This document shows positions 4,709 through 19,545 of a stretch of DNA of 64,000 nt, piece after piece. How positions within the stretch are numbered: position 1 is the first letter of the stretch; every line of letters starts with the position of its first letter. The position numbers and the translations under genes were made by a program. Location of the stretch: the IMG/VR virus record IMGVR_UViG_3300025572_000008, positions 16,606 through 80,605 of that record; one strand, given 5' to 3'. The notes under the pieces are model-generated. The model did not search any database and was not told the DNA's origin. It saw nothing but the letters and a program-made list of their open reading frames with translations. This stretch comes from a virus.

Positions 4709-6553
4709 ATGTCTTCATCAAACGTTTATTACAATCCGCCACTCATTCCAGGAATGACGGCGGGGACGAATCCGCTCGCTGGCAATTATGCGGCGACGCC
4801 GAATCCTTTCTTCACCGTGGCGAACCAGTTTCTGCCGCGGAATCTGCACGACGTCATACGATGGGCTCGGTTCATCACCTTGCAGTCGCCGGTCACGACC
4901 GAGGTCATTCGGAAGTTGTCCACTTATCCGATCACTGACTTCATCGTTGATACGACGGACAAGGCGGTAAAGGAGCGTTACGAGGAGATTTTCAAGTACA
5001 CTCGCTTGAAATCAGCCCTGCATGACATCGGCTTCGAATACTATACGATCGGCAACGTCTTCCTATCAATCTACTTCCCGATTCAGAGGATGCTTCGCTG
5101 CCCCTCTTGCAGTCAGGAGTACAACGCCAAGACGGCAACGTTTACGACGTTCCGGAACTACGAGTTCCATGGCGTCTGCCCGGCCTGCGGATTCAAGGGT
5201 AATTTCATTCGGAAGGACTCAAAGTCCTTCGACATCAGGGATCTAAACCTGGTGCGATGGGACCCCGTACACATTGCGGTAAACCACAATCCGATCACCA
5301 ATGAGTACGAGTACTACTACAAGATCCCGAACGAAGTGCGTCGCCGAGTCAAGATGGGCGATAAGCTTTTCGTCAACTCGGTGCCCTGGGGCTTCATCGA
5401 AGCCGTCAAAAACAACCAGGACTTCAAGTTTGACAGAGACAACATCTATCATCTGCGCAACATCTCAGCGGGTCCGCTGATCGAAGGAGTTGCTATCCCG
5501 CCGCTGATTTCATTGTTTGGCCTGGTTTTCTATCAACAGACCTTGCGCCGAGGGAATGAAGCCATCGCTCAGGACTATATGACTCCGTTGCGTGTGGTTT
5601 TCCCTCAGGCTCAGACGGGTAACTCCGATCCTGTGATCTCAATCTCCATGCGGAATTTCCAGGCCCGCATGAAGCAGGCTTTCATCGATCACAAACGAGA
5701 TCCAAACCACGTCCTTATCGCTCCCGTTCCGGTTGGCTACCAGGCAATCAGCGGGGAGGGGAAGGCTCTGCTCGTGGCACAGGAAATCGCTCAGGCCGAC
5801 GAGTCGATCCTCCTTAGCCTAGGCGTATCGAGGGAGTTACTGTCCGGTCAGACCAATTGGACGAGCTCAACAATCGGCTTGCGTCTTCTGAAGAACACGC
5901 TCGAGGTCTACGTCGACCAGATCGAGAGCTTCCTTGAGTGGTTCATCTCCCGGGTTTCGAAATACCTGAACCTGAAAACCTGCGATGTAACCCTGGCTCC
6001 GTTCAAGTTGACGGACGACGAGAACCTGCGGCAGATGCTTTTTGCTCTTGCTCAGAATGGAAATTGCTCGCTCTCGACGCTCTACGAGTCCTTCGGCATG
6101 GACTATCAAGAAGACCTGAAAAAGCAGCGTGAAGACGCGGTGGCCACAGCCACCAACCAGGTCGAAACCAAGTTCGAGGTCGAGAGGGCACAATTCCTTG
6201 CGGCCAAGGAAGTCGGCGAGAAATTCGACAAGTCCTCGGGAGATTACCGTGCTGCTCTGGAACAGGCTCAGTACGCCGCCTCACAGCTTGCTGGCGCCGA
6301 TGGTCAGACGCAACGGATGGTGCTCAACCAGCTCAAGATCGAGGATTACGCCAAATATCTCATGGTTGCCAAGCTGCTCGACGAGGAGAACGAGAGGCGG
6401 CAAGAGGAGCTTGCCATGGCTCAGAATCTTGCCGTCGGTCAACCAGGAGAAAACGGGGAAGAAGGGGAGAAAGAGGCTCAGCCGAAAAAGGCGGTTTCGG
6501 ATCGTCCGGAAGGAGGATACCCGCCGGGTCCCGAAGAGCAGCCAGACGCATAA
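4709..6553 (+). CDS. probable portal protein with Zn-ribbon insertion
   Basis: 614 aa; helical N-terminal wing (VIRKLSTYPITDF), EYYTIGNVF segment, clip region and SLGVSRELLSG typical of portals; CPSC...CPAC insertion; acidic disordered tail. Confidence 0.65.
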   Translation: MSSSNVYYNPPLIPGMTAGTNPLAGNYAATPNPFFTVANQFLPRNLHDVIRWARFITLQSPVTTEVIRKLSTYPITDFIVDTTDKAVKERYEEIFKYTRLKSALHDIGFEYYTIGNVFLSIYFPIQRMLRCPSCSQEYNAKTATFTTFRNYEFHGVCPACGFKGNFIRKDSKSFDIRDLNLVRWDPVHIAVNHNPITNEYEYYYKIPNEVRRRVKMGDKLFVNSVPWGFIEAVKNNQDFKFDRDNIYHLRNISAGPLIEGVAIPPLISLFGLVFYQQTLRRGNEAIAQDYMTPLRVVFPQAQTGNSDPVISISMRNFQARMKQAFIDHKRDPNHVLIAPVPVGYQAISGEGKALLVAQEIAQADESILLSLGVSRELLSGQTNWTSSTIGLRLLKNTLEVYVDQIESFLEWFISRVSKYLNLKTCDVTLAPFKLTDDENLRQMLFALAQNGNCSLSTLYESFGMDYQEDLKKQREDAVATATNQVETKFEVERAQFLAAKEVGEKFDKSSGDYRAALEQAQYAASQLAGADGQTQRMVLNQLKIEDYAKYLMVAKLLDEENERRQEELAMAQNLAVGQPGENGEEGEKEAQPKKAVSDRPEGGYPPGPEEQPDA

Positions 6554-6568: not shown

Positions 6569-6880
6569 ATGGCAACCAACAATTTAAACCCGTTCGCCGG
6601 CAACCCTGTACCCGGCGTTTCCAAGATAAGTGCGGTTGAGATTCCTGGGTTCGGACCCTCTCAACCGACTGAGCTCGACCTAAGCCAGTACAAAGTGCGC
6701 TATTCGAAGATCGACCTGGACGATCCGGGCTCCATCGCGGAGCTGGAGATTCTCGAAACCAGGGCGATTCGTAACGAGGGTATTCACATCCTGAACAAGG
6801 ACAAATTCGTCTTCATGGATAAGTACTTCCTCATCGTTTCTTACCTCGAACAAGACCGGAATGCCAATACCAGCCGATAA
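6569..6880 (+). CDS. hypothetical protein
   Basis: 103 aa, AAGGAG SD, sits between portal and RNAP. Confidence 0.75.
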   Translation: MATNNLNPFAGNPVPGVSKISAVEIPGFGPSQPTELDLSQYKVRYSKIDLDDPGSIAELEILETRAIRNEGIHILNKDKFVFMDKYFLIVSYLEQDRNANTSR

Positions 6881-9800
6881 AGCCGACCACCTCCAACGTA
6901 TCTTTTCGTCTCCTAGGGAGCTCAGCCGAAAGGTCGACGCGGCGCTGATCGCAGGTATCCAATCGCAGTTCCCCATTGAAGGTAAGTACTTTACGCTCGT
7001 CGCAGAAAACGTCCGCGCCGAGCCGAAAACGTTCACCCATGAAGACGAGAAGGAAGCCATCCTTAAGTCCAAGTCTCTGACCTATCCAATCAAGGGAGAC
7101 CTTAAGCTCATCGATAAGGCGACCGGAAAGGTCGTGGCTGAGCAGAAGGATTTCTCCTTAATGGATGCCTTCCATCTCACCAACAAGCACACGCTGCTTT
7201 ACAAAGGAAATAACTACTCGGTTGCCAACCAACTCCAGCTTCGGCCTGGAGTCTACACTCGAGCCCGAGAGACGGGAGAGCTCGAAAGCCACGTCAACAC
7301 GGCTACGGGGCGCAGCTTCTCTCTGACTCTCGATCCTCAGACGGGATTGTTCTACGTCCAGATCCAATCCTCCTCGATTCCTCTGGCGCCGCTTCTGACT
7401 AGGGTATTCGGTGTTGGCCCGAAGGAAGTGAGCACGTACATCCCTGTCGAAGTTTGGGATGCGAACTTGAAGGCGAGTGCCGGGAAGGAGACCAAATACC
7501 TTTCTGATCTCTACAACCGACTGGTTTCAACCTCCAAGCGACGCCCAGGGGCCAGCCCTGAAGAGATGGCCTCTCAGCTTAAGGAGGCTCTGGAGAGCTC
7601 CCAACTGTCTCCGCAAACGACGCAAGTGACGTTGGGAAAGGCCTTGGGCAGCGTGACGTCGGAAACCATTCTACGAGCGATGAAGAACCTGGTCGACGTC
7701 CACGCCGGCCGACGTCCTGAGGACAACCGGGACTCCCTGCAGTTCAAGCGTGTCCAGAATCTGCCTGACTTCCTGGCTCGACGCTTCGAAAAGGAGCACC
7801 AATCGGTGACGAACGTTGCTCGGAAGATCAAGTACGAGCTCGATCGCATGGATCGAAACGATCCGAAGATCCGAGGGGCGATTGCTGCCAAGCCGTTCAA
7901 CAAGATCATGTCCAGCTACCTACTGGACAGCAATCTTGTGGCTACGCCTTCCGAGACCAATCCCGTTGAAAGCCTGGAGAATGTGGCCAAGGTGACCGTT
8001 CTGGGAGGTGGCGAAGGTGGCATCGAATCCTCTAGAGGTGTCCCCATGTCGGCCCGTGACATTGATCCCTCTCATCTAGGGATCATTGATCCGAGCCGGA
8101 CTCCGGAATCCGGACATGCTGGTATCGATCAGCGCTTCACCGTTTCTGCTCGCCGGGACGCCGACGGCAATCTCTACGCTCGTGTCCGAGACAACAGTGG
8201 CAAAACTCACTTCCTCTCGGTCCACGAGATGATGACGCACACGATCGGCTTCCCGCACCAAGAGGGGAAGAGGAAGGTTCAAGCACAGGTCAATGGGGAG
8301 CTGAAAGAGGTTGATCGCAGCAAGGTCGACTACTGGCTGGCTGACAGCACGGACATGTACACGATCACAACCAACCTCGTGCCGTTCCTCAATTCCAATC
8401 ACCCGGGACGCCTCACCATGGCAGGCAAGGCCATTCCTCAGGCCCTGTCTCTCGTTGATCGGGAAGCCCCTCTTGTTCAAACAACGAACGACGAAGGCGT
8501 TCCTTTCGTCAAGCTGCTCGGAAAAATCACGTCGACAATCTCCCCGGTGGACGGGGAAGTCACGGCTGTCACTTCGAAGCACATTGAGATCAAGAGCAAC
8601 GACGGTAAGACCCACAAGGTTCCTCTCGTCAAGAACTTGCCCTTTAACATGAAGGGCTTCCTGGACGATGAGACGCCTCTGGTCAAGCCTGGTGACAAGG
8701 TTAAGTATGGCGATGTCCTGGTCGACAACAACTACACGAAGAATGGTGAGCTGGCCATCGGCAAGAACTTGACTGTCGCCTATCTGCCGTACAAAGGCTA
8801 CAACCACGAGGACGGTTTGGTGATTAGCCGGTCGGCGGCCGAGAGCCTCGCTAGCCATCATGCTTACAAAATCGACTACGACGTGCAGGACACGTCCGTC
8901 ATGCGTAAGCAGCTGATCAACCGTTACTTTCCAGGAAGATACACCAAGGAGCAACTGGACAAGCTGGACGACAAGGGATTCGCAAAGGTTGGCGCGGTGC
9001 TGAACCACGGGGATCCCGTCTATGTTGTCCTGGAAAAGCGTGAGCCGACACCAGAAGACAAGATGCTTGGTCGGCTTCATAAGACGCTCGTTGCTCCGTA
9101 TCGTCCGGTTTCGGAAATCTGGACCCATGAAGAGCAAGGAGTCGTTGTCGACGCTCACACTGAAGGGAAGGCTATCCGGATCCTGGTACGATCGAAGAAG
9201 CCGCTTGAGATCGGAGACAAGCTTACCGGCCTGCACGGTAACAAAGGGATTGTGTCTCTGATCTTGGAAGATCACGAAATGCCTTACAACAAGGAGACCG
9301 GAAAGCCAGTGGATCTGTTGCTGAACCCGGCTTCGGTGACGTCCCGAATCAATCTTGGGCAGCTCATGGAGACGGCTGCGGCGAAGATCGCCCAGAAGAC
9401 AGGCAAGCCTTATCTCGTCCACAACTACTCTAAGAGCAGTAACATCGCCGATCTCAAGAAAGAACTCACGGCGCATGGACTGGACGATTCGGAGGTTCTG
9501 GTTGACCCCAAGACCGGCAAGGAGCTCGGCAAGGTTCTGACGGGCCCGCAATACATCGCCAAGCTGTACAAAACCACGGATCAGAACTGGTCGGCTCGCA
9601 ACGTCGGAAGTTACGACAATGCTATGCAGCCGACGAAAGGCGGGGAAGAAGGTTCCAAGGCCGTCGGCTACATGGAGATGCTGGGTCTGTTAGGCTCGGA
9701 TGCCCGCAAGAACCTCAAGGAAATCGCCACGATCAAATCCGAGAAGAATGAGGAGTTCTGGTCTCGTTTCCTGAACGGGCAGCCTCTTCCGAAGCCGAAG

Positions 9801-10283
9801 ATGACCTTCGCTACTCAGAAGTTCTTCGACTACCTGACCGGAGCCGGGATTAAGACGTCCTTCAAGGACGGCAAAATCACCGCGGCACCTTTGACTAGCC
9901 GTGACATTCTGGAAATGAGTCACGGGGAGATCAAGGAGCCGACCTTCATCGATGCGAAGAACCTCGAGCCGGCCAAAGGCGGCCTGTACGACCCGTCCCT
10001 GACCGGAGGTCTGCGGGGCACCCGTTGGACTCACTATACTTTGGCGGAACCCATTCCTAATCCGACTTTCGAGAAGCCAATCAAGAGCCTGCTTGGCCTG
10101 ACTACGAGCGAGTTTAACGGCGTGGTCTCTGGGGCGATAGGCATTCGTCGTGCTGACAAGGGTATCTTCCACCTGCATGACTCGGAAACAGGGAAACACC
10201 TGAAAACGATCAACCTCAAGACTTCGATGCCGGTAGAGGAAAGGGAAGAAGAGGAGAAGGAGCACGACGATGACACTCTATAA
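6861..10283 (+). CDS. rpoB: RNA polymerase beta subunit fused to the beta' N-terminal segment
   Basis: Beta motifs QLQLRPGVY, ARDIDPSHLGIIDPSRTPES, YLPYKGYNHEDGLVIS, GDKLTGLHGNKGIVS, LNPASVTSRINLGQLME, GYMEM..L; followed by beta' N-terminal motifs SHGEIKEPTFI...GGLYDP...HYTLAEP. Confidence 0.95.
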   Translation: MPIPADKADHLQRIFSSPRELSRKVDAALIAGIQSQFPIEGKYFTLVAENVRAEPKTFTHEDEKEAILKSKSLTYPIKGDLKLIDKATGKVVAEQKDFSLMDAFHLTNKHTLLYKGNNYSVANQLQLRPGVYTRARETGELESHVNTATGRSFSLTLDPQTGLFYVQIQSSSIPLAPLLTRVFGVGPKEVSTYIPVEVWDANLKASAGKETKYLSDLYNRLVSTSKRRPGASPEEMASQLKEALESSQLSPQTTQVTLGKALGSVTSETILRAMKNLVDVHAGRRPEDNRDSLQFKRVQNLPDFLARRFEKEHQSVTNVARKIKYELDRMDRNDPKIRGAIAAKPFNKIMSSYLLDSNLVATPSETNPVESLENVAKVTVLGGGEGGIESSRGVPMSARDIDPSHLGIIDPSRTPESGHAGIDQRFTVSARRDADGNLYARVRDNSGKTHFLSVHEMMTHTIGFPHQEGKRKVQAQVNGELKEVDRSKVDYWLADSTDMYTITTNLVPFLNSNHPGRLTMAGKAIPQALSLVDREAPLVQTTNDEGVPFVKLLGKITSTISPVDGEVTAVTSKHIEIKSNDGKTHKVPLVKNLPFNMKGFLDDETPLVKPGDKVKYGDVLVDNNYTKNGELAIGKNLTVAYLPYKGYNHEDGLVISRSAAESLASHHAYKIDYDVQDTSVMRKQLINRYFPGRYTKEQLDKLDDKGFAKVGAVLNHGDPVYVVLEKREPTPEDKMLGRLHKTLVAPYRPVSEIWTHEEQGVVVDAHTEGKAIRILVRSKKPLEIGDKLTGLHGNKGIVSLILEDHEMPYNKETGKPVDLLLNPASVTSRINLGQLMETAAAKIAQKTGKPYLVHNYSKSSNIADLKKELTAHGLDDSEVLVDPKTGKELGKVLTGPQYIAKLYKTTDQNWSARNVGSYDNAMQPTKGGEEGSKAVGYMEMLGLLGSDARKNLKEIATIKSEKNEEFWSRFLNGQPLPKPKMTFATQKFFDYLTGAGIKTSFKDGKITAAPLTSRDILEMSHGEIKEPTFIDAKNLEPAKGGLYDPSLTGGLRGTRWTHYTLAEPIPNPTFEKPIKSLLGLTTSEFNGVVSGAIGIRRADKGIFHLHDSETGKHLKTINLKTSMPVEEREEEEKEHDDDTL

Positions 10284-10479
10284 TCCCAATCGCTTCGTCA
10301 CCGGTCTGACAGATATTCACTATGTGAAGCAGGTGAATCGAAAGACGACTTACCGGGACCCTAACACCGTCCCGGTTTCGTCCGATTCGACGAAGCCTAT
10401 CGTTGTTCGTGAACGTCCGGCGATCGACACGAAGTTCATCCCCGATCCGTTCAAGCCGGAAGACGCTTCGGAACTATAA
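10270..10479 (+). CDS. small hypothetical protein within the RNAP operon
   Basis: 69 aa, AAGGAG SD, fills the gap between two RNAP genes. Confidence 0.5.
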   Translation: MTLYNPNRFVTGLTDIHYVKQVNRKTTYRDPNTVPVSSDSTKPIVVRERPAIDTKFIPDPFKPEDASEL

Positions 10480-10486
10480 TATCGAC

Positions 10487-11662
10487 ATGGCAACTCCTTC
10501 TATTCCTCACGCCGACATCGAAGAACTGACCGTCGGAGGCCAGGCTTTTGAGCAGATGCTGGCTGATGTCGATGTGTCGGCCCAGATCCGAGATCTAAAA
10601 AAGCAAATCCTTGAGACGAAATCTCCGTCAAAACGAGATCAGCTGGTCAAGAAGCTGAAGTACCTGGCAGGCATTCAGAAGTTAGATCTGAAGCCTCACG
10701 AGGCGTACATCCTACATCACATCCCTGTGGCACCGCCCTTGGTTCGACCATCCATACCCATGGGCAATAATCGGATCGAATACGCCGACGTCAATTACCT
10801 CTACAAAGACCACATGCTGGTCAACAACTCGCTAAAGGATATTAAGGACGTCCTGCTGCCTCACCAGACAGTGGCTGAGCGGAAGGCCTTGTACGATGGA
10901 GCCAAGGCTGTATTCGGTCTCGGAGAGGCTATCACGGGAGCCAACCGCGGGAAGGCTAAGAAAGGATATATCAAGCAGATCGCCGGAGACACTGGACCTA
11001 AGGGAGGCTACTTCCATTCCAAGCTGTTGTCGAGGAAGCAAGACTTTTCCGGCCGGGCAACGATCTATGCCGAGCCGAATCTAGGCTTTAACGAGGCGGC
11101 TGTGCCAAAGGATATGCTCTGGACGATGTACGAGTTTCACATCATCCGGGACTTGGTTCGCAACGGCTATGACTACGTCTCAGCGAAGAAGGCTGTGCAG
11201 GCCCGCGACACCGCAGCGACGAATAGCTTTAACAAGCTCATCAAGCAGATCCCGGTGATCCTGAACCGAGCCCCGACTCTGATGCGCACCAACATCACGG
11301 CGCACTATCCTGTGCCTGTCGAAGGCAAAACGATAGGTGTTAACCCGTTGCATCTGCCTCTGTACGCAGGAGACTTCGACGGAGACGCCTTGACAATCCA
11401 TCTTCCTATGACGCCAGAGGCCATCGAGGAAGCTAAGCAAAAGCTTCTTCCTCAAGCTCATATCTACGACTACCGGAAAGGGCAGGGTGCCGCGATGGTG
11501 GCTCCGGGCCACGAGGCGATCATCGGTTCGACCTACCTTACGGAACCTGACCATACTCAGGACGTAGTGGAATTCGAAACTGAAGAGGATGCTCTAAAGG
11601 CCCTGAAGGAAGGGAAGATCAAGGAGAACACGCCGATTCGAATCAAGGCTCACCTGACATAA
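10487..11662 (+). CDS. rpoC: RNA polymerase beta' middle fragment (catalytic DFDGD)
   Basis: IPVAPPLVRP, RKQDFSGRATI, VILNRAPTL, catalytic YAGDFDGD; start moved to MATPSIP. Confidence 0.95.
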   Translation: MATPSIPHADIEELTVGGQAFEQMLADVDVSAQIRDLKKQILETKSPSKRDQLVKKLKYLAGIQKLDLKPHEAYILHHIPVAPPLVRPSIPMGNNRIEYADVNYLYKDHMLVNNSLKDIKDVLLPHQTVAERKALYDGAKAVFGLGEAITGANRGKAKKGYIKQIAGDTGPKGGYFHSKLLSRKQDFSGRATIYAEPNLGFNEAAVPKDMLWTMYEFHIIRDLVRNGYDYVSAKKAVQARDTAATNSFNKLIKQIPVILNRAPTLMRTNITAHYPVPVEGKTIGVNPLHLPLYAGDFDGDALTIHLPMTPEAIEEAKQKLLPQAHIYDYRKGQGAAMVAPGHEAIIGSTYLTEPDHTQDVVEFETEEDALKALKEGKIKENTPIRIKAHLT

Positions 11663-11663
11663 A

Positions 11664-11691
11664 AACCCGGGACTCGGTTAAGCCCCGGGTT
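11664..11691. terminator. terminator between convergent genes
   Basis: AACCCGGG/CCCGGGTT stem with an A-run on the left. Confidence 0.65.
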
Positions 11692-11718: not shown

Positions 11719-12270
11719 TCAGTCGTTTTCGAACAGCTTTTTAAGTTCCGTGTACAGCTGCCTTGCTGCCATGAGCGGAAGCTGTACCGTGCCCGACGAG
11801 GTCTTCAATGTCAAGGAGGCAATCGGAGAACCGTCGGACGAACCGATTAGATTGCTCCGATCGGCCTTGGACGCCACTCCGGCTTCCTGGGTCTTCGCTC
11901 TTACCGATATCTTTCCTCGTCGAGTCGAAGTGGCTTTTGCCATACGAATCTCCTTCAGTCCGTTGCGACGTGTTCCGTAACTCGGCTCATACGGTTTATC
12001 CGGGACAGCCTCGAACCTAAGGAGCGGCCGTCGCCTCTTGTTGAGCTCCTGAGTCTCTATCGTCCTAAGATGCCCGTTTGCAACCAGAGATTTCAAGGAC
12101 GCATAGACGACGGGTGCAGTGAGATGGGATAGGGCCTCGGTGAGCTCCCTCTCGTTCTGTTCCGGGTGATTCACGACATAGCTGTAGACTTCCTGCGTCT
12201 TGTTGATGAATGGCACAGGCCGTGACGATTCCCCTCTAGACGCCGGGCTAGTTGCAGTCGCTCCGTTCAT
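11719..12270 (-). CDS. putative winged-helix DNA-binding protein
   Basis: 183 aa; VYSYVVNHPEQNERELTEALSHLTAPVVYASLKSLVANGHL has a wHTH-like pattern; basic C-terminal half. Confidence 0.5.
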   Translation of the reverse strand: MNGATATSPASRGESSRPVPFINKTQEVYSYVVNHPEQNERELTEALSHLTAPVVYASLKSLVANGHLRTIETQELNKRRRPLLRFEAVPDKPYEPSYGTRRNGLKEIRMAKATSTRRGKISVRAKTQEAGVASKADRSNLIGSSDGSPIASLTLKTSSGTVQLPLMAARQLYTELKKLFEND

Positions 12271-12331
12271 TTCCAGTAACCCCCTTGGTTGTTTCTACGG
12301 GACTTGAGCTGATTTGAACTTACTACGCTTC

Positions 12332-13222
12332 TTACTCGACGAAATCCAATTCTCCATCTGCATCCCCGTTGTAAACTGGATGCCTTAGACGACCTCCCGC
12401 TCCGCTCGGCCCCAAGGATTTGACCTGTATAAGCTTTCCGATCCAGGCCTTAGGATTGGCCCAGGCCTCCTTGCGCTGAGCCTTCGTGAACCCACTGCCT
12501 ACCGCGGCTACTTCCCTACCTGACCGATCGGTCACTATAACGGCACCCATAGAATCCTTTGGCTTTCCGTTTTTGTCGAACTCCTGAACTATCCGCGAAA
12601 CTCGCAAATTGTAGGTGCCGAAGTGTTTCAGCTTGATCCTACGGTTGCTCGGCTCAGGAGTCGATAGGGAAGTTATTATTACACCCTCTTCCCCGCGTCG
12701 TCGCGTTGAATTTATCAGTTCGACGATGTCGGGTTTTGTGATTTTGGGCTCCGGAACAAACATCATGTCCGGCTTTCCGAAGGCCTGCTCAACCTCTTTC
12801 AGATGAAGCAGTTTCTCTCGATAGGTAGGTAGAGGAGGGTTAATGACGTCGATAAGGACGGCACGGACGGGCCCAGTTTCCTTCTGGGTAGCAATGGCCC
12901 TCTCTGGCAAAGAGTTCAAAATTCCCGACAACCTGGAGTGTGACTCCACGTCATTCTTAGAGTGCCCAGTGTGGATAAGCTCCACGGAGTAGACGTTCCC
13001 GGCCAAGTGAGGCAGCTTCGTTTCAGTCAAATGAGGTAGCTGAGCCGTGCGTTCAGGAAAATGACCCTTAACGGATTGTCGTCGAGAAAAGTAGCGCAAG
13101 GAACCGTCCGGCTCAACTGTTACAAAAAAATGTGCACCATCCCACTTTTTTGTCGCAACGGGGTCGGATATCGTGGTCCAATCGAGTTGATTCGAATCTT
13201 TGTACTGTGCCCTTGTAAACAT
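12332..13222 (-). CDS. ATP-dependent DNA ligase (minimal NTase + OB domains)
   Basis: Motif I KKWDG, motif IV EGVII, motif V IKLK, OB domain VGSGFT...W.G.LIQVK and LRHPVY. Confidence 0.9.
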   Translation of the reverse strand: MFTRAQYKDSNQLDWTTISDPVATKKWDGAHFFVTVEPDGSLRYFSRRQSVKGHFPERTAQLPHLTETKLPHLAGNVYSVELIHTGHSKNDVESHSRLSGILNSLPERAIATQKETGPVRAVLIDVINPPLPTYREKLLHLKEVEQAFGKPDMMFVPEPKITKPDIVELINSTRRRGEEGVIITSLSTPEPSNRRIKLKHFGTYNLRVSRIVQEFDKNGKPKDSMGAVIVTDRSGREVAAVGSGFTKAQRKEAWANPKAWIGKLIQVKSLGPSGAGGRLRHPVYNGDADGELDFVE

Positions 13223-13260
13223 TCAGATAGTATAGCACTGCCCGTAAAGATTGGAGGCTT

Positions 13261-15165
13261 TTATGCTGCGTGTTTTTTCATCAATTTCCTTACCTGATTG
13301 AACAATTCGTCTTTGTCATCACTATGCTCAGTCAGATATTTATCGATACTGTAAGGAGTCTTCGAAAAACGAGATGGCGGTAGCACTGACTGATAGTGCT
13401 CCACATGAACGTGACGCTCCTTCTCCGGGAGATGTTCATGAGATCCGAATCGGGCCCCGCGTCCTATCACCTGTTTGATCTTGGCCTTGTTGAAGTGCGG
13501 CTCGAGCGTTTGGATGAGCTTCGTTCCCTTGAGATCTAGCCCTTCGGCACCCGAGGACGAAACAAGGAGGACCGGCACCTTTCCGCTGTTGTAGTCAGCG
13601 ACGATCTGGTCCTTCTCCTTGCGAGTCAGGCCGCCGGAATACACGCGATGAGGGATCCCTTCCTTCTCGAGGCGTTTGGCGTACTCGTGGACGCCAGAGT
13701 CGAGGTAATTCGAGTACACCAGGCCTCGGAAATTCTTGTCAGAGCTCAGACGTTCCTTCAACCGTGCTACAGCTTTTTCGATCTTCGGCGTATGCGGAAC
13801 TTCGTCGGGGTTGCTAGATAAATGTCTCATTGAGTTTGAGACCTGACGTACTCCGGTTGAAAAAGCGTTAAGAGAAGCCCTCTCTTTCTTATCCAAAGGG
13901 AGATTGTGCCGGACTTTCATACGAAGCAGCCAGGGCAGGTCTCCTTCGACGTAGCGGTAAAGCCGGTGCTGTTCCGGGCTCATCGGAACCTCGACGACCT
14001 CTTCCGTTTGCTTAGGAAACTTGCCTGCCATCTTCGGATCGTCCTTAGCGTCGTAGTAGGAGACGTACTTGCCGAAGATCTTGCCGAGTTCCTTCTCCTG
14101 ATTTAAGACCTTGGCCTCGTCAGGCTTCTTTCCAAGGACTCTCTGCATCAGCGTGGGTTTCTTTCTGATCGTCTTGATGTAGCGATTCTCCATCTCCGCT
14201 GGATCTTCGGGGAGCACGGCCTTGCCGGCCGCCATGTTGACGAGCGGTGATATATCAGAGAGGCGGTTGTAGTTTCCCGTTGCCGTGGCGAGGATTCGCT
14301 TGTCAGAAGAGGAGATAATGTCCCTGAGTTTCCGGGTTCGCTTAGCGTCGATGTTCCTTAGCTTGTGTGCCTCATCGGCCACAGCGAGGGCATACTTACG
14401 CTTAGCCAGCTCGTCGGCCATATTCGTGGCCTTTTCGTAGCTGAGGACGGTAAGGCGATTTCGATCGATATTCAGTTTGTGCTTCTCGATCTCTTTGTCG
14501 ACGTTTGTCTGCAGGCTAGCAGGGGCGACGATGAGAACGTGGCCTTGGGGATTTTCCTTCTGAGCCCGCTCGGCTGCGGTGAGAAACGTCTTGGTCTTGC
14601 CAGACCCGGTGGAATGGTGAAGGACGATGCCCTTCGACTTCTCTAGCTTGGAAAGGGCCTCCTCTTGATGCTTACCGAGAGCCTCGGCTATCTTGACGAG
14701 GTAGCGGTTGCAAGGACATGAAGCAGGCAGCTTCAGGTTGGCTGCTTTCTCGATATATTTGTTCCCGGTCTTCCCGAGGTTCCGAAACAACCACGCCTTG
14801 TCTCCCCATTCGCTGCCCTTCAGCTTCTTTAGTAGAAACTTCTGGCCATCCTTGGTGTGAATGGTCAACTGATCCGAAGTACTGTTTTCTCCAATCCGGG
14901 CCTTACGGACCCAGTCCAAGGTCGTGACTCCGGCTCCATAGGAGCCTTTGGGAATGACAACCTTCTTGCTCAAGGCGTAGTGGCGATCGTGAACCGGCTG
15001 CTCGAAAAGGATGATCGATCGACCAGGCTCAGGCAGCTCCTTCTTCGTGGCCCAGGAGTAAGCCTTATCTCCGGCTACGAGCCGGTAATCCCAGTGCAGT
15101 CCCATTCTGTCCGCTTCGTGACGCTGACGAGTGAACAGAATTTCTTGATCTGGTTGGAGAGGCAT
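13261..15165 (-). CDS. LigD-type 3'-phosphoesterase domain fused to SNF2 helicase
   Basis: N-terminus QRHEADRMGLHWDYRL..SWATKK..HDRHY..IPKGSYGAG (PE domain); helicase motifs HSTGSGKT, VADEAH, ATATG, SSSGAEGLDLKG, QVIGRGAR. Confidence 0.9.
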   Translation of the reverse strand: MPLQPDQEILFTRQRHEADRMGLHWDYRLVAGDKAYSWATKKELPEPGRSIILFEQPVHDRHYALSKKVVIPKGSYGAGVTTLDWVRKARIGENSTSDQLTIHTKDGQKFLLKKLKGSEWGDKAWLFRNLGKTGNKYIEKAANLKLPASCPCNRYLVKIAEALGKHQEEALSKLEKSKGIVLHHSTGSGKTKTFLTAAERAQKENPQGHVLIVAPASLQTNVDKEIEKHKLNIDRNRLTVLSYEKATNMADELAKRKYALAVADEAHKLRNIDAKRTRKLRDIISSSDKRILATATGNYNRLSDISPLVNMAAGKAVLPEDPAEMENRYIKTIRKKPTLMQRVLGKKPDEAKVLNQEKELGKIFGKYVSYYDAKDDPKMAGKFPKQTEEVVEVPMSPEQHRLYRYVEGDLPWLLRMKVRHNLPLDKKERASLNAFSTGVRQVSNSMRHLSSNPDEVPHTPKIEKAVARLKERLSSDKNFRGLVYSNYLDSGVHEYAKRLEKEGIPHRVYSGGLTRKEKDQIVADYNSGKVPVLLVSSSGAEGLDLKGTKLIQTLEPHFNKAKIKQVIGRGARFGSHEHLPEKERHVHVEHYQSVLPPSRFSKTPYSIDKYLTEHSDDKDELFNQVRKLMKKHAA

Positions 15166-15183
15166 GTGACTTGAGGAGGCTAA

Positions 15184-15213
15184 AAAATAACTCTGCGTGA
15201 ACAGAGTTATTTT
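15184..15213 (-). terminator. intrinsic terminator of the upstream minus-strand gene
   Basis: 12-bp stem AAAATAACTCTG/CAGAGTTATTTT with a U-run on the minus strand. Confidence 0.7.
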
Positions 15214-15215
15214 AA
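15208..15215 (-). promoter_or_regulatory. putative late promoter motif TTAAAATA (only minus-strand copy noticed)
   Basis: 42 nt upstream of the PE-SNF2 ATG, embedded in the terminator stem. Confidence 0.45.
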
Positions 15216-15230
15216 GGCAGAGCCTAGTTT

Positions 15231-16409
15231 TTAGCCGAAAGTAACAGCGTCAGCCGGCGGCTCAAGCTTTACGATCTTACGAGTCCTTCGTCGCGTAACG
15301 ACGAGCTCGGGGATTTTGGGAACTTCAGAAGTCTCAGGGCTCTGCTTAATTTCTGGTTTCTTATAGTTTGCGTGGAACCGCTGAATCGAGTCCCGGATCG
15401 TATCAGGCGTGCTGCTCTTAACGAAGAACTCGAACTCCCCGTGGCTCGGAAAAGTCGCTTTGTAAGCCTCGGTGAAGAGGTCGAGATCCTCTCCAGATTC
15501 GATCCCGGTTGCCGCCATCACTGTCTCACTGTTGAATTTGGAGCGGACAAGTTTATTCGAATAATAAGCCTCGGCAACGGCCTTGCAGGAGTCGATAAGG
15601 GAGCTCGTCTCGATGAAGGTCTTAACATGTAGAAGTTGGTGCGGTTCCGGAGCGACAGGCCAAGGCTGAGGGTCCCCCTGTGCCCGACGTCGGAGACCTT
15701 CTTCGGCAACATATTTAACGAATCCTGCGAACGATGGGTCGTTCAATCGAGAGGCATCACCTACATATTCGAAGTTTTCGTTGATGTCGTATGCCGAAAG
15801 AGTGAAAAGATAATTCCTAAGGATTGACGCATAAACGTCTTCCCGTTGTTCGAAACCGTAGTGGAAACTTCCTCCTGCACTGTAATAATAATCCAGCTTC
15901 AGGAAGGGCATAATGGCGCCAAATTTATTGGAGTAAAAGACGTATCCAATATTTTCATCACCATCTTTTAAAACATAGAACAGACCGCTTTGGGTAAGTT
16001 TCAAGTTGTAAGGTTGTGCGAGATATTGGATCAATCCTCCCGCTCCATCGTAACCTAAGAGAGTAGCGTTTAGCGCAACCGTACCGTAAGGGACTTGAAT
16101 AAAATTGACCTGATGGCCTTTGAACTCGAAAGAACTCACATTACCATTCCGGGCCCAAGCTTTAGATTTAAGGGTTTCGGCAAGTGCAGGCTCGAAATCC
16201 TTAGTACCAAACGAGGTACTCAGCACGCCTTGATCAATGACAATATCCAAGCTCGCATATCCATCCTTTGAGAATTTCAGAGCTCTAGTTGGCAACGCAG
16301 AATCTCGCAGTTCAAGCGCACGAAATACCTCGTCTTTGAGACTTTCCCGTTTGCTATGAGTCATCAGCCGCGTGATTCTACATTTTTCTCGAAGCGCATT
16401 ATCGCTCAT
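15231..16409 (-). CDS. hypothetical protein, possibly a degenerate pol-beta-like nucleotidyltransferase
   Basis: 392 aa; YASLDIVID and NGNVSSFEFKGHQVNFI recall phage minimal NTases, but the acidic triad is incomplete. Confidence 0.4.
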   Translation of the reverse strand: MSDNALREKCRITRLMTHSKRESLKDEVFRALELRDSALPTRALKFSKDGYASLDIVIDQGVLSTSFGTKDFEPALAETLKSKAWARNGNVSSFEFKGHQVNFIQVPYGTVALNATLLGYDGAGGLIQYLAQPYNLKLTQSGLFYVLKDGDENIGYVFYSNKFGAIMPFLKLDYYYSAGGSFHYGFEQREDVYASILRNYLFTLSAYDINENFEYVGDASRLNDPSFAGFVKYVAEEGLRRRAQGDPQPWPVAPEPHQLLHVKTFIETSSLIDSCKAVAEAYYSNKLVRSKFNSETVMAATGIESGEDLDLFTEAYKATFPSHGEFEFFVKSSTPDTIRDSIQRFHANYKKPEIKQSPETSEVPKIPELVVTRRRTRKIVKLEPPADAVTFG

Positions 16410-16410
16410 A

Positions 16411-16827
16411 ATGAGTTCCTTTAATGAAAACGGCTTTCTTCGGGACGTGGCTCAGCGAGCCTGTCTCGATATAGCCTTTAAAGATGAAAAGATGCTCCCA
16501 GGGGTAGCAACAATCGGAGCGTTGCCGATCGATATTACCATCAAGGGGAGAAGACTGATTCTGAACGCAGTCGGGGATTTTGGTGGAACGGAAAAGAGCT
16601 TTTCTCTTTGCCAGTCTCGAGGAAAAGGTTTGTTCCGATCCCTTTACCCGCATTTCATCGACGCCATGAAGGCATTTGATCTGGAGCCTCGGATATGGCT
16701 AACGCCGTTGAGCCCAGTCTGGCAAAAAAACTACCCCTTGGTAGAGGTAGAAGCCGGCCCGGTTAAGGGCCATAGGTTCTTCCTGGACGTCACGCAGCCT
16801 TTGCCGCCTGCGCCAGACCGTTCCTGA
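16411..16827 (+). CDS. hypothetical protein, possible GNAT-fold acetyltransferase
   Basis: SRGKGLFRSLY resembles GNAT motif A; lies antisense within a minus-strand block. Confidence 0.4.
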   Translation: MSSFNENGFLRDVAQRACLDIAFKDEKMLPGVATIGALPIDITIKGRRLILNAVGDFGGTEKSFSLCQSRGKGLFRSLYPHFIDAMKAFDLEPRIWLTPLSPVWQKNYPLVEVEAGPVKGHRFFLDVTQPLPPAPDRS

Positions 16828-17122
16828 AAGTTTCGAGATTGAACTTAGGATTGGACGGCACAAACGGCCCTAGCATTCCCGGATCATCATACTGAAGAGT
16901 CGTATAGATGCCTCCGTTATCGTAGATTTTCTTCCGGAGCTCATCGGTGACGACACACATTTTGATTTCACTAGCACGGCTGTAGCATCCTGGCTCTCCG
17001 AGATTCTTGATCCGCCGGATCTCTCTCTGGAGAAACTCCTTGTCGAAAGCGTAGCTAACTCCATCCGGCCGATCCAACCCTCTCTCGTACTCAGTCCAGA
17101 CAGTGCGATAGACGACGTTCAT
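16790..17122 (-). CDS. hypothetical protein
   Basis: Start MNVVYRTV with GGAG SD. Confidence 0.7.
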   Translation of the reverse strand: MNVVYRTVWTEYERGLDRPDGVSYAFDKEFLQREIRRIKNLGEPGCYSRASEIKMCVVTDELRKKIYDNGGIYTTLQYDDPGMLGPFVPSNPKFNLETFRNGLAQAAKAA

Positions 17123-17163
17123 GATCTCTCCTTGAAAATCCAACCATCTCGAGGCGATTCAGG

Positions 17164-17595: not shown

Positions 17596-17667
17596 TATTA
17601 GCTCCTTCAAAGCAAGAATGAAAACGACCGCTCTATAATGATTAGAGCGGCAGTTCTTTGTACAATA

Positions 17668-17675
17668 CTTATACC
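17668..17675 (-). promoter_or_regulatory. putative early promoter motif GGTATAAG
   Basis: CTTATACC upstream of the minus-strand block starting at 17595; back-to-back with a late motif. Confidence 0.65.
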
Positions 17676-17687
17676 ACTACTCTGTTC

Positions 17688-17693
17688 TAAAAT
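17688..17693 (+). promoter_or_regulatory. putative late promoter motif TAAAAT
   Basis: 19 nt before ATG 17713. Confidence 0.45.
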
Positions 17694-17712
17694 GGATAGA
17701 GAAATCCAAGCC

Positions 17713-19545
17713 ATGTCCACTGATAAGATCACAACTCCGGGTGCTCTTCTGCTTAAGCACTCTATGCCGACTGAAGCGGCAAAACAGAATTTCAATCTCT
17801 ATCGCCCTCTGGACAAAGGAGGGATGTCGGACCTCGTTCAAATGCTGCTAAAGCATGGAGGTCCGAATGCGCATGAGCACATCAACAACCTGGCCAAGCT
17901 CTTCTTCAACAAGGCTACTGAAATCGGAGCTTCGACGCCTCTGTCCGACTACATCAACGAAAGCGACGAACGCCAGGCACTCATCAATGAGTTCGATTTC
18001 AAGGCTCAGAAGATCCTGAACGACCCGAATAAGTCTCGAGCAGAGAAACAGCGTGAGCTAGGTGAACTCGTCTCTCAATACGACAAGAGGATCGAAAAGC
18101 AGAACGTCGAATATCTCGTCAGCAAAGGTTCGATGGCGGCGAAGATGGCCCGTACCGGCGCTCGAGGCAACCCGAAGCAACTGGCCGTGGGTACGTCGAC
18201 GCCCCTGTTGTCATCCAATCTGAAGGGGGAACTCGTCCCCGTCGTGATCAAGAAGAGCTTTGCCGAAGGCATGAGCCCGGCCGAGCACATCGCCATGTCC
18301 TACATGGGCCGCGGCAACACCGTGTTGACTCAGCTATCCACGGCCCTTCCTGGGGCCTTGTTCAAACAGCTGTCCCCGACCGTCTTCCATGAAACCATCA
18401 CAATCGATGATTGCAAGACCAAGAACGGAATCATGGTCCCGATCGAGGACAAGAAGAGGCTTGTTGGCAGCTACACCGCGGACACGAACCGTCTTATCGA
18501 CGAAGCCTACTACAAGGAACTGAAGGCTTCAGGAGCCACAGCCGTCAAGGTTCGCAGCGTGATGACCTGCGAGGCTCCTCAGGGCGTCTGCAAGCATTGC
18601 TACGGTCTAATGGGTAGCGGCAAGAAGCCGGAAATCGGGGAGAACGTCGGCGTCATCGCCGCTCAATCTGTATCCGAGGTTCTGACCCAAGCCATGCTGT
18701 CGACCAAGCACAAGGCTACGGTTGGCGAGCGCAAGGGGAACGCTTATGAGCAGGCGTCCAATCTTCTGAGAAACCCGGCCGATAACTTCAAGGACGAGGC
18801 GACGATCGCTGAAATCAACGGTCGGATTACTGACATCAAGAAAACCCCTCTAGGTGACTACCAGGTCTTCGTCAACGAGAAGGGTCACTTCGTACCGCAA
18901 ACTCAGGGTTTGAAGGTGAACATTGGTGACAAGGTTCGCAAAGGCGATCCTCTGTCGACCGGAGTGATCAATCCTCGCAAGCTCGTTGCGCTCAAAGGTC
19001 TTGGGGCTGGAAGGCAATACATGTCTCAAGAGCTTCGAGGGATCTATGGCGGAGGGCTGGATCCTCGCCACTTCGAAGTGATTTCAAAGAACCTCATGAA
19101 ATACGTCGAAGTCATCGATCCAGGTCATACCGGCTTCCTTCCCGGGGATAAGGTCGACGTCAATGCTGTGGCGAAATATCTCAAGAAGAGCAGCCGAGAA
19201 GTTCCGATCGATCAAGCCGAAGGCCATATCCTATCTCACGGTGTGCATGAGCTTACGCCAGGCACCCTGCTCGATGCTAACCATATCGAAGATCTGAAGA
19301 GGGTTGGCGTCAAGACCGTGAAGGTTTCTGATAACGGCTTGAAGGTAGCTCCGATTGTGCCGGGCCTGCAGACGGCGAAGCTCTTGGATCCGAACTGGAT
19401 TTCCAAGCTGTCATTCTCTCGACTGAAGGATACGCTTCAAGAAAGCGCGGCGCTCGGGGCCGAATCTCCGGAACACAGCACGGATCCCATCGCGCCTTAT
19501 ATCATCGGTCGTGAGTTCGGCGAAGGCGAGCACGGTCAATACTGA
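17713..19545 (+). CDS. rpoC: RNA polymerase beta' C-terminal fragment
   Basis: MARTGARGN, bridge helix SFAEGMSPAEH...STALPGAL, Zn site CEAPQGVCKHCYG, trigger loop GVIAAQSVSEVLTQAMLSTKH; start moved to MSTDKIT. Confidence 0.93.
   Translation: MSTDKITTPGALLLKHSMPTEAAKQNFNLYRPLDKGGMSDLVQMLLKHGGPNAHEHINNLAKLFFNKATEIGASTPLSDYINESDERQALINEFDFKAQKILNDPNKSRAEKQRELGELVSQYDKRIEKQNVEYLVSKGSMAAKMARTGARGNPKQLAVGTSTPLLSSNLKGELVPVVIKKSFAEGMSPAEHIAMSYMGRGNTVLTQLSTALPGALFKQLSPTVFHETITIDDCKTKNGIMVPIEDKKRLVGSYTADTNRLIDEAYYKELKASGATAVKVRSVMTCEAPQGVCKHCYGLMGSGKKPEIGENVGVIAAQSVSEVLTQAMLSTKHKATVGERKGNAYEQASNLLRNPADNFKDEATIAEINGRITDIKKTPLGDYQVFVNEKGHFVPQTQGLKVNIGDKVRKGDPLSTGVINPRKLVALKGLGAGRQYMSQELRGIYGGGLDPRHFEVISKNLMKYVEVIDPGHTGFLPGDKVDVNAVAKYLKKSSREVPIDQAEGHILSHGVHELTPGTLLDANHIEDLKRVGVKTVKVSDNGLKVAPIVPGLQTAKLLDPNWISKLSFSRLKDTLQESAALGAESPEHSTDPIAPYIIGREFGEGEHGQY

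Follow-up and report, generated by a model that had tools for sequence, protein, structure and literature searches.

Background

The 3′-phosphoesterase (PE) domain provides one of the three activities of LigD, the others being those of an ATP-dependent DNA ligase and a primase-polymerase, and LigD acts together with Ku in bacterial nonhomologous end joining (NHEJ). PE also exists as a minimal stand-alone protein in archaea, for example the 117-amino-acid (aa) CkoPE of Korarchaeum. It was reported that six residues of CkoPE are mutationally essential, and that the archaeal PE genes stand apart from repair genes, their pathway and partners being left unnamed (PMC3082917). In the same study, PaePE and MbaPE required an N-peptide for vigorous 3′-phosphatase activity, and CkoPE, which has no N-peptide, resected 3′-ribonucleosides well and removed the resulting 3′-phosphate poorly (PMC3082917). 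Here we describe a locus in which a PE domain is fused to an SNF2-family ATPase and the fusion gene lies beside the gene of a minimal ATP-dependent DNA ligase. It is located in a stretch of 64,000 nucleotides (hereafter the window, whose numbering is used throughout), positions 16,606 to 80,605 of IMGVR_UViG_3300025572_000008, a 168,216-bp genome of an uncultured phage that is 92% complete.

Parts of the NHEJ system and SNF2-type ATPases are both encountered in phages. The mycobacteriophages Corndog and Omega have a Ku of their own and rely on the LigD of the host to circularise. The DarB protein of phage P1 is a virion-packaged SF2/SNF2 ATPase. We found no description of a phage PE or of a PE-SNF2 fusion in the literature, which agrees with the original prediction for this locus, made from the sequence alone, whose author knew of no characterised fusion of this kind.

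Results

The PE domain

The N-terminal part of the 634-aa fusion protein (Table 1) is a member of the LigD 3′-phosphoesterase superfamily, as confirmed by profile, residues and fold. The Pfam family LigD_N (PF13298) matches residues 14-82 with E 2.1e-7 and 31.5 bits, a marginal score against the gathering score of 31.1; relatives of the same clade score 38-64 bits (up to 63.7). With TIGR02777 the score is 25.3 bits against a threshold of 144, so the window PE is not an equivalog of the LigD domain. In phmmer searches the N-terminal 160 residues match four solved PE proteins: 3p43 (E 1.7e-6), 3p4h (E 5.6e-6), 5dmp and 3n9b. These alignments pair H16, H24, D26, R28, H59 and Y63 with His9, His15, Asp17, Arg19, His51 and Tyr55, the six essential residues of CkoPE. 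The alignment assigns H16, H24 and D26 as metal ligands and R28 and H59 as phosphate ligands, with Y63 as the sixth residue. All six are kept in 18/18 aligned PE-bearing homologues, and they are invariant or at least 90% conserved across 99 representatives of the phage PE clade. The residues on which the original prediction had relied (H16, H24-W-D26-Y-R28, H59...Y63 and I71-PKGSYGAG) are indeed present, and the six essential ones among them are conserved and match the solved PEs.

An AlphaFold model of the whole protein, built with 25 homologues (mean predicted local distance difference test score, pLDDT, of 86), is confident except at residues 134-160. Residues 8-130 of the model (pLDDT ~90) superpose on CkoPE (3p4h_A) with Z 15.8 and a root-mean-square deviation of 1.8 Å over 113/118 residues (VIA); the two domains are of the same size and 30% identical. 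When the full-length model was submitted to Foldseek, the top 50 matches were all Snf2 proteins, and it took the exhaustive VIA search to bring out the PE fold.

The first strand begins after just 7 residues, so the N-peptide is absent, the same state as in CkoPE; the N-peptide marks a subgroup of PE proteins and not the whole superfamily. Because of this absence, the window PE is expected, by analogy with CkoPE, to be mainly a 3′-ribonucleoside-resecting phosphodiesterase with a weak 3′-phosphomonoesterase activity. The identification of the domain as a PE is upheld, but vigorous 3′-phosphatase activity is not supported, since the N-peptide required for it is missing.

The ATP-dependent DNA ligase

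The PE-SNF2 and ligase open reading frames (ORFs) lie head-to-tail on the minus strand with 38 bp between them. Profiles and motifs confirm the predicted 296-aa product of the second gene as an ATP-dependent DNA ligase with nucleotidyltransferase (NTase) and OB domains, and nick sealing is its predicted activity. It matches phrog_114, 'ATP-dependent DNA ligase', across its full length (E 1.5e-27) and Pfam DNA_ligase_OB_2 with 35 bits against a cut-off of 28; the Pfam NTase-domain model matches the fused relatives described below and does not match the window ligase. Motif I is K26-WDG, with K26 as the nucleophile, and motifs IV (E179-GVII), V (IKLK) and VI (RLRHP) follow. Among solved structures, 6rau and the Chlorella virus ligase 1fvi are matched. 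The nearest homologues in cultured phages, at ~25% identity, are the gp30-type DNA ligases of KVP40-like vibriophages. Thus the PE, the SNF2 ATPase and, directly downstream, the minimal KxDG ligase with its motifs IV-VI and OB domain are all real and adjacent where the original prediction had placed them, and chance does not account for any of these matches.

No second DNA ligase, NAD- or ATP-dependent, was found in the 92%-complete genome. A capping-enzyme identity, prompted by the nearby RNA polymerase genes, was considered for the KxDG protein and rejected: capping-enzyme and RNA-ligase families give no match at E <=0.01, and only DNA-ligase families and structures are matched. Elsewhere in the genome, outside the window, a 796-aa enzyme of the bacterial Pnkp type is encoded (G000:C1:17947-20337; L085:37-2427), in which Pfam recognises an AAA_33 kinase, a calcineurin-like phosphoesterase and a PNKP_ligase domain (E 1.3e-30).

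PE and ligase occur together and are fused in several lineages

In order to see how the genes are combined in other viruses, we collected 80 viral loci around SNF2 homologues (L numbers below) and mapped the PE, ligase, RNA polymerase and neighbouring genes in them. Co-occurrence was counted at 62 SNF2 loci, with PE sought within 10 kb and five genomes examined beyond the flanks; some of these loci are near-duplicates, and the independent lineages number roughly sixteen. Wherever PE is found near SNF2, the ligase is present too (24/24 loci), and the other 38 loci have neither gene. In the complete 185-kb genome G002 the PE gene lies directly upstream of a ligase gene whose product is 61% identical to that of the window, and the pair is 25 kb away from SNF2. 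Neither gene was found anywhere in the complete 195-kb genome G004 or in the cultured Salmonella phage Arash.

Single-ORF fusions of PE and ligase are present in four lineages (L039/40, L046, L053 and L034). The L039 fusion is collinear with positions 326-712 of a bacterial LigD model, in its PE-ligase part (E 2.5e-28), and the order in L046 is DUF192-PE-ligase. On a 187-kb viral contig, a single ORF of 1329 aa (L034:7421-11410) comprises PE, ligase, pyrophosphatase and SNF2. Its pyrophosphatase is of the InPase type (PF18823, E 1.4e-26), and its domains are separated by long Gly/Ala-rich spacers. Because of the co-occurrence in 24/24 loci and the fusions in four lineages, PE and ligase are supported as a functional pair, in line with the functional link that had been assumed from the two adjacent genes.

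The PE-SNF2 fusion is less constant. It is found in the window and in L003, L004, L010, L011, L019 and L022. Homologues of the 634-aa protein are numerous in the protein database and all metagenomic; of the best 120 homologue clusters at 90% identity, 45 have the PE + SNF2 architecture, and the rest are ~480 aa long and carry no PE. In a tree of the SNF2 domain, one well-supported clade of 25 members requires at least 3 gains or losses of the fused state; in most of these members PE is just upstream and the ligase just downstream of SNF2. The PE-SNF2 fusion is therefore evolutionarily unstable and not a stable design. The window locus has no blastn match among 50,697 cultured-phage records, and the PE domain has no tblastn match at E <=1e-3 in the same records.

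An exhaustive hidden Markov model search delimits a phage PE clade of ~100 representatives (clusters at 50% identity). The PE domain is nearly always N-terminal and is followed by a short tag (see below). Behind it, the 99 representatives show SNF2 (4), ligase (4), encapsulated-ferritin-like domains (4), GNAT acetyltransferases (2), a barnase-type ribonuclease (1) and otherwise mostly unknown sequence. Such varied partners form a pattern of concatenated cargo modules and not of one dedicated bifunctional enzyme. Since at least 3 gains or losses have occurred and many unrelated partners follow the same tag, the fusion perhaps serves co-packaging and not mechanistic coupling. The ferritin-like or rubrerythrin-like domains (PF22277, PF02915), seen in the 4/99 representatives, are exemplified by L016:9989-10759 and L020:8385-9086. 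A recurring domain of ~110 aa, with no Pfam match and with a conserved W-H-N-x-x-H-P-Q-G-W-Y-Q-W-Y motif, is present between PE and SNF2 or in front of SNF2 (L012:7629-9626; L015:9983-10846; L019:9980-12283, as a PE/SNF2 insert; N-terminus of P0023). L012 also has a phrog_17560 segment with a ParB-like D-G-x-H-R motif, recognised by eye.

The SNF2 ATPase belongs to a virion and RNA polymerase gene cluster

The rest of the 634-aa protein is, as had been proposed, a full SF2/SNF2 ATPase; it has two RecA-like lobes and the helical insertions specific to Snf2 proteins. Pfam finds SNF2-rel_dom (59.9 bits) and Helicase_C (55.2 bits), and the Snf2 motifs I (G187-SGKT), II (D264-EAH) and VI (Q565..R569..R572) are in place; GSGKT, DEAH and Q..GR..R are invariant in the alignment. 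Foldseek relates the model to Chd1, ISWI, CSB, Mot1 and NPH-I with E 2e-21. By VIA, residues 158-634 match the Snf2 cores of SWR1, INO80, SNF2h, CSB/Rad26, Chd1, NPH-I and ZorD with Z 26.2-20 over ~400 residues, and no subfamily is favoured.

The nearest cultured homologues are gp217 of phage Arash, to which the SNF2 part is 41% identical and which carries no PE, and a protein of Pseudanabaena phage PA-SR01. In relatives down to 30-45% identity, Arash included, the genes next to SNF2 are those of the portal and the split RNA polymerase; several distant relatives have the portal and SNF2 genes side by side. SNF2 is thus a core gene of the virion/RNA polymerase cluster in the Arash-like phage group, most members of which carry neither PE nor ligase. 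Arash gp217 was detected in purified virions together with RNA polymerase subunits, among 116 detected proteins (PMC10585845). The SNF2 protein may serve the virion polymerase or DNA entry, and PE may share its route into the head.

The linker consists of tags found at protein termini

PE and SNF2 are joined by a disordered linker that holds two copies of a tag (Table 1). On head-cluster proteins the N-terminal tag reads M-x-N-(K/R)-Y-L-x-K-(I/V/L/A)-A. The pattern was matched at 12 places among the long ORFs of the genome; most copies start an ORF of the head gene cluster, and two fall within the PE-SNF2 linker. Unfused SNF2 orthologues start with MNKYLEKIA. In separate PE proteins the tag stands right after the PE domain, even where the protein ends there. 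Among the ligases, those of L003 and L005 (453 aa each) and that of L022 begin with the tag; the ligase of the window phage has no such tag, and the tags are missing in the L034 fusion as well. The two 453-aa ligases (L003:12305-13666 and L005:13066-14427) have an N-terminal extension of ~165 aa, in which a helix-hairpin-helix-like motif was seen by eye, with no support from profile searches.

Because the linker holds two tags that elsewhere start head-cluster proteins, SNF2 proteins and some ligases, we read the 634-aa protein as a polyprotein. It is probably made late, packaged in the head and cleaved, which would also fit the presence of Arash gp217 in virions and the TTAAAATA copy upstream of the gene (see below).

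Gene layout and candidate transcription signals

Both genes are carried by a minus-strand island, ~11719-17143, which breaks into a plus-strand block with genes for a portal-like protein, for head proteins and for the parts of a split multisubunit RNA polymerase (Table 1).

Table 1. Features in and around the PE-SNF2/ligase locus (window coordinates)
Feature	Position	Strand	Basis or remarks
Portal-like 614-aa protein	4709-6553	+	Portal-protein PHROGs, E 1e-10; just upstream of the RNA polymerase genes
Split RNA polymerase pieces	6861-10283, 10403-11662, 17638-19545	+ (block)	ORF list
Intrinsic-terminator-like hairpin, 12 pairs then a T run	11664..11691	-	Terminator scan; strong
183-aa ORF downstream of the ligase	11719..12270	-	Pfam TrmB (winged-helix), E 0.0046, below cut-off
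296-aa ATP-dependent DNA ligase (nucleotidyltransferase + OB)	12332..13222	-	phrog_114, Pfam, PDB matches, motifs
634-aa PE-linker-SNF2 gene	13261..15165	-	ORF list, Pfam, AlphaFold model; stop codon 13261-13263
SNF2-family ATPase core, aa 161-634	13264..14685	-	Pfam, invariant columns, Foldseek, VIA
Disordered linker, aa 133-160	14686..14769	-	pLDDT <50 at residues 134-160
Tag copy NRYLVKIA, aa 153-160	14686-14709	-	Tag regular expression
Tag copy NKYIEKAA, aa 135-142	14740-14763	-	Tag regular expression
PE domain, aa 8-132	14770..15144	-	phmmer, VIA superposition, residue roles from PMC3082917
Hairpin, 12-bp stem	15184-15213	-	Overlaps TTAAAATA; candidate terminator of the upstream gene and/or part of a promoter
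TTAAAATA motif	15208-15215	-	49 nt upstream of the PE-SNF2 start codon; candidate late promoter
392-aa upstream neighbour	15231..16409	-	Weak family-X-polymerase-like fold signals

The TTAAAATA upstream of PE-SNF2 is the only minus-strand copy (15215) in the window. All other TAAAATA copies are on the plus strand, mostly 30-130 nt upstream of virion-cluster genes, and CTTAAAATA occurs 3 times against 0.27 expected. The plus-strand (T)TAAAATA sites are at 1773, 4676, 20392, 23054, 28531, 31666, 34998, 37794, 40602, 48781 and 49658, nearly all in spacers. This distribution makes (T)TAAAATA a candidate for a late promoter used by the RNA polymerase that the phage encodes. The hairpin at the other end of the locus would end a transcription unit of PE-SNF2, ligase and the 183-aa ORF. 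A scan for sigma-70 promoters gave fewer matches than in shuffled sequences, and an AGCCTCC motif shared upstream of both genes was discarded, since it shows no enrichment. In the metatranscriptome X1, an 18.5-kb contig stops at 15189 and its successor starts at 15234, leaving the spacer with TTAAAATA and the hairpin uncovered. These data are assembled contigs of one study, silent on transcripts, strand and level; the gap is compatible with a start near 15189 and was not counted as evidence.

The 183-aa ORF is missing in a close strain: a contig of the compost run X2, from a strain 95-99% identical to the window, joins 11745 to 12324 and skips 578 bases.

On the other side, the 392-aa neighbour matches phrog_24943, 'DNA polymerase', with E 1.4e-8. 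Its structural neighbours in the Atlas are the palm/thumb of family X polymerases (PolX) and nucleotidyltransferases, and Foldseek places Pol lambda on top with E 7e-3 or worse, from a model of pLDDT 62. In our alignment, two of the three catalytic Asp positions are replaced in the window copy, which has Ser53-x-Asp55 and Asn where the 37%-identical relative P0122 has D-x-D and D. The 392-aa protein is thus probably catalytically degenerate, to judge from these residues, and we leave it out of the working module. We considered, and dropped, a Pol-PE-Lig trio in which this gene would supply PolX: there is no Pfam or NCBIfam match, the Foldseek E-values exceed 0.001, the catalytic positions appear degenerate, the model is of low confidence and a word-based search gave only 2 sequence homologues. 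Homologues of this gene lie directly upstream of PE in L003-L005, L010 and L011.

Discussion

Proposed function and alternative explanations

On balance, we lean towards the view that the locus is a two-enzyme, Ku-independent system for healing blocked DNA 3′ ends and sealing nicks, with PE produced inside a polyprotein that also holds the SNF2 dsDNA translocase. An operon of PE-SNF2 and ligase (and perhaps the 183-aa ORF) would be transcribed late from a TTAAAATA-type signal shared with the virion genes. The NKYLEKIA-type tags in the linker would route the protein into the head alongside the virion RNA polymerase, and would probably also mark cut sites that give free PE and free SNF2. The Mn-dependent PE would then trim blocked 3′ ends on phage DNA (terminal ribonucleotides and, less efficiently, 3′-phosphates) to 3′-OH, and the ligase, adenylylated on K26, would seal the 3′-OH/5′-phosphate nick. 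Such a system is the healing-and-sealing logic of LigD cut to two parts. Nicks and small lesions would suit it better than double-strand ends because Ku and the polymerase domain are absent, and DNA is the presumed substrate because the ligase has a DNA-ligase-type OB domain and a separate Pnkp-like RNA repair enzyme is encoded; the putative helix-hairpin-helix motif seen by eye in the tagged 453-aa ligases would point the same way. The substrates, the timing and any cooperation of the SNF2 motor in repair are, like the packaging, parts of the proposal that we infer.

Several observations weigh against this two-enzyme reading. The LigD_N score of the window copy barely exceeds the Pfam threshold (31.5 vs 31.1), the missing N-peptide may mean that the 3′-phosphatase is weak, and the activity of the phage PE is here a prediction only, as is the choice of lesion. 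As the sole DNA ligase in the genome, the 296-aa enzyme could simply be the replicative ligase and, being untagged, it may not be packaged. Packaging itself rests on a putative function of the tag and on the permissive virion proteome of a distant relative: the Arash proteome has 116 proteins, and Arash gp217 has no tag. Moreover, PE has become fused to one and the same SNF2 family on two independent occasions, in the clade of the window and in L034, which could reflect a real coupling.

That coupling would be the essence of a mechanistic alternative, which we regard as rather unlikely, in which the uncleaved PE-SNF2 protein is a translocase-coupled end processor whose motor delivers the tethered PE to a 3′ end, the ligase then sealing. 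By the same doubtful scheme, the motor would track along duplex DNA or push off a stalled RNA polymerase or other protein, in the manner of CSB/Rad26, Mfd and ALC1, and equally speculative targets would be blocked nicks or the 3′ ends of RNA in R-loops. PE has been joined to this SNF2 family at least 2 times in differing arrangements (the window clade and the tagless L034), the order PE, SNF2, ligase is kept in most of the 25-member clade, the SNF2 gene sits among RNA polymerase subunit genes, and minimal PEs favour 3′-ribonucleotide ends. The polymerase-bound CSB, Rad26 and vaccinia NPH-I are also among the structural neighbours, but such matches reflect the Snf2 core in general, and INO80 or SWR1 match at least as well. 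Among close relatives the fusion has come or gone at least 3 times, sister lineages have PE separate or otherwise fused, SNF2 follows PE in only 4/99 representatives of the PE clade, and the linker is disordered and made of two tags that mark protein termini elsewhere, all of which argue against a dedicated machine. A further possibility, tentative although it extends the packaging idea, is that the head delivers a repair kit with the virion RNA polymerase: PE, SNF2 and (in relatives) the ligase would be addressed by tags, cut, and ejected with the genome, mending 3′-blocked nicks before expression begins. We would suggest, no less tentatively, that these nicks arise in the particle or on entry. 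The PE-tag fusions to encapsulated-ferritin-like domains would fit a protection of packaged DNA from oxidative breaks.

The original prediction had seen in the locus a Ku-independent end-joining system that rescues DNA after restriction or CRISPR cuts or circularises incoming linear DNA. In this NHEJ-like form, with double-strand ends joined, we consider the proposal improbable. In its favour, two of the three activities of LigD are present, PE and an ATP-dependent ligase, relatives have PE-ligase fusions collinear with LigD, an SNF2 motor could in principle clear proteins off ends, and phages exploit NHEJ parts elsewhere, as with the Ku of Corndog and Omega. However, searches of the 168,216-bp, 92%-complete genome for Ku (PF02735, for which a control genome matched) and for the LigD primase-polymerase domain (TIGR02778) were both negative. 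The ligase has its two minimal domains and nothing beyond them to bind DNA or bridge ends, and complete relatives do without PE or ligase. Independence of Ku is therefore borne out, whereas end joining is not: with no polymerase domain and no end-bridging factor, the locus shows no sign of it, and nothing points to circularisation. Restriction enzymes, Cas9 and Cas12 leave 3′-OH/5′-phosphate ends. Because these products already end in 3′-OH, PE adds nothing to their repair and they cannot be the reason for its presence, so the restriction and CRISPR part of the proposal is not supported and PE presumably acts on other substrates. Least probable in our estimate is an RNA target, whether tRNAs or transcripts cut by host ribonucleases or the 3′ ends of transcripts of the virion polymerase. 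PE enzymes do act on 3′-terminal ribonucleotides, phage RNA healing and sealing is known from T4 Pnkp + Rnl1, and the genes are located among RNA polymerase genes; but by its family matches and its OB domain the sealing enzyme is of the DNA ligase kind, RNA ligase families do not match it, the module has no 5′-kinase, and the genome already has its Pnkp-type kinase-phosphatase-ligase elsewhere.

Significance

The PE family gains a clear partner outside NHEJ, and the tag system gains an enzymatic cargo. The phages offer a natural experiment, in which a minimal PE is tied to a minimal ligase with no Ku or polymerase domain and complete sister genomes lack both genes, and a Ku-independent heal-and-seal pathway becomes directly testable with two small proteins. 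If packaging is true, DNA repair enzymes join the proteins that phages inject with their genome, and NKYLEKIA cargo can be traced. The 130-aa 3′-end-healing domain and the 296-aa ligase, from a bioreactor/compost phage, could also serve as reagents.

Comparison with known systems

The locus fits the PE superfamily, the Snf2 family and the ATP-dependent DNA ligases, and it differs from NHEJ in the features that define the latter, Ku and the polymerase domain. With the LigD/Ku system (Pseudomonas aeruginosa LigD; PE structures 3n9b, 2lj6) it has in common the PE fold and the six essential residues, as well as the placement of PE beside, or fused to, an ATP-dependent DNA ligase, as seen in the window phage and its relatives. 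In contrast to LigD/Ku, the window genome has neither Ku nor a primase-polymerase domain, its PE has no N-peptide and is fused to SNF2, and its ligase (296-aa NTase-OB) is nearer to the phage gp30-type and Lig E-type enzymes than to the LigD ligase domain. The carrier here is a large phage of lytic type. The stand-alone minimal archaeal PE (CkoPE, 3p4h) is similar in that neither it nor the window PE has an N- or C-peptide and its organism, like the window phage, has no Ku. Unlike the archaeal PE, that of the phages always comes with a ligase gene, and a family-specific tag and changing fusion partners stand behind it.

T4 Pnkp with its RNA/DNA ligase, and bacterial Pnkp, follow the same logic, in which one phage enzyme restores the 3′-OH and a phage ligase seals. 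However, the catalytic domains are unrelated (a HAD or calcineurin-type phosphatase and a P-loop kinase versus the PE beta-barrel), the PE module has no kinase, and Pnkp systems act on RNA. For the motor, vaccinia NPH-I (6rfl_Y, in the virion RNA polymerase complex), a Snf2-type ATPase with Z 20.1 to the window model, and P1 DarB provide a parallel: a late-made Snf2-type ATPase that travels in the particle along with a virion RNA polymerase, the Arash orthologue being likewise found in virions. Neither has a PE domain or a ligase partner, the window protein is only presumed to be packaged, and with NPH-I there is no specific kinship beyond the common Snf2 core. Finally, Corndog and Omega have likewise acquired one part of NHEJ, which is Ku in their case and PE with a ligase, but no Ku, in the phage described here.

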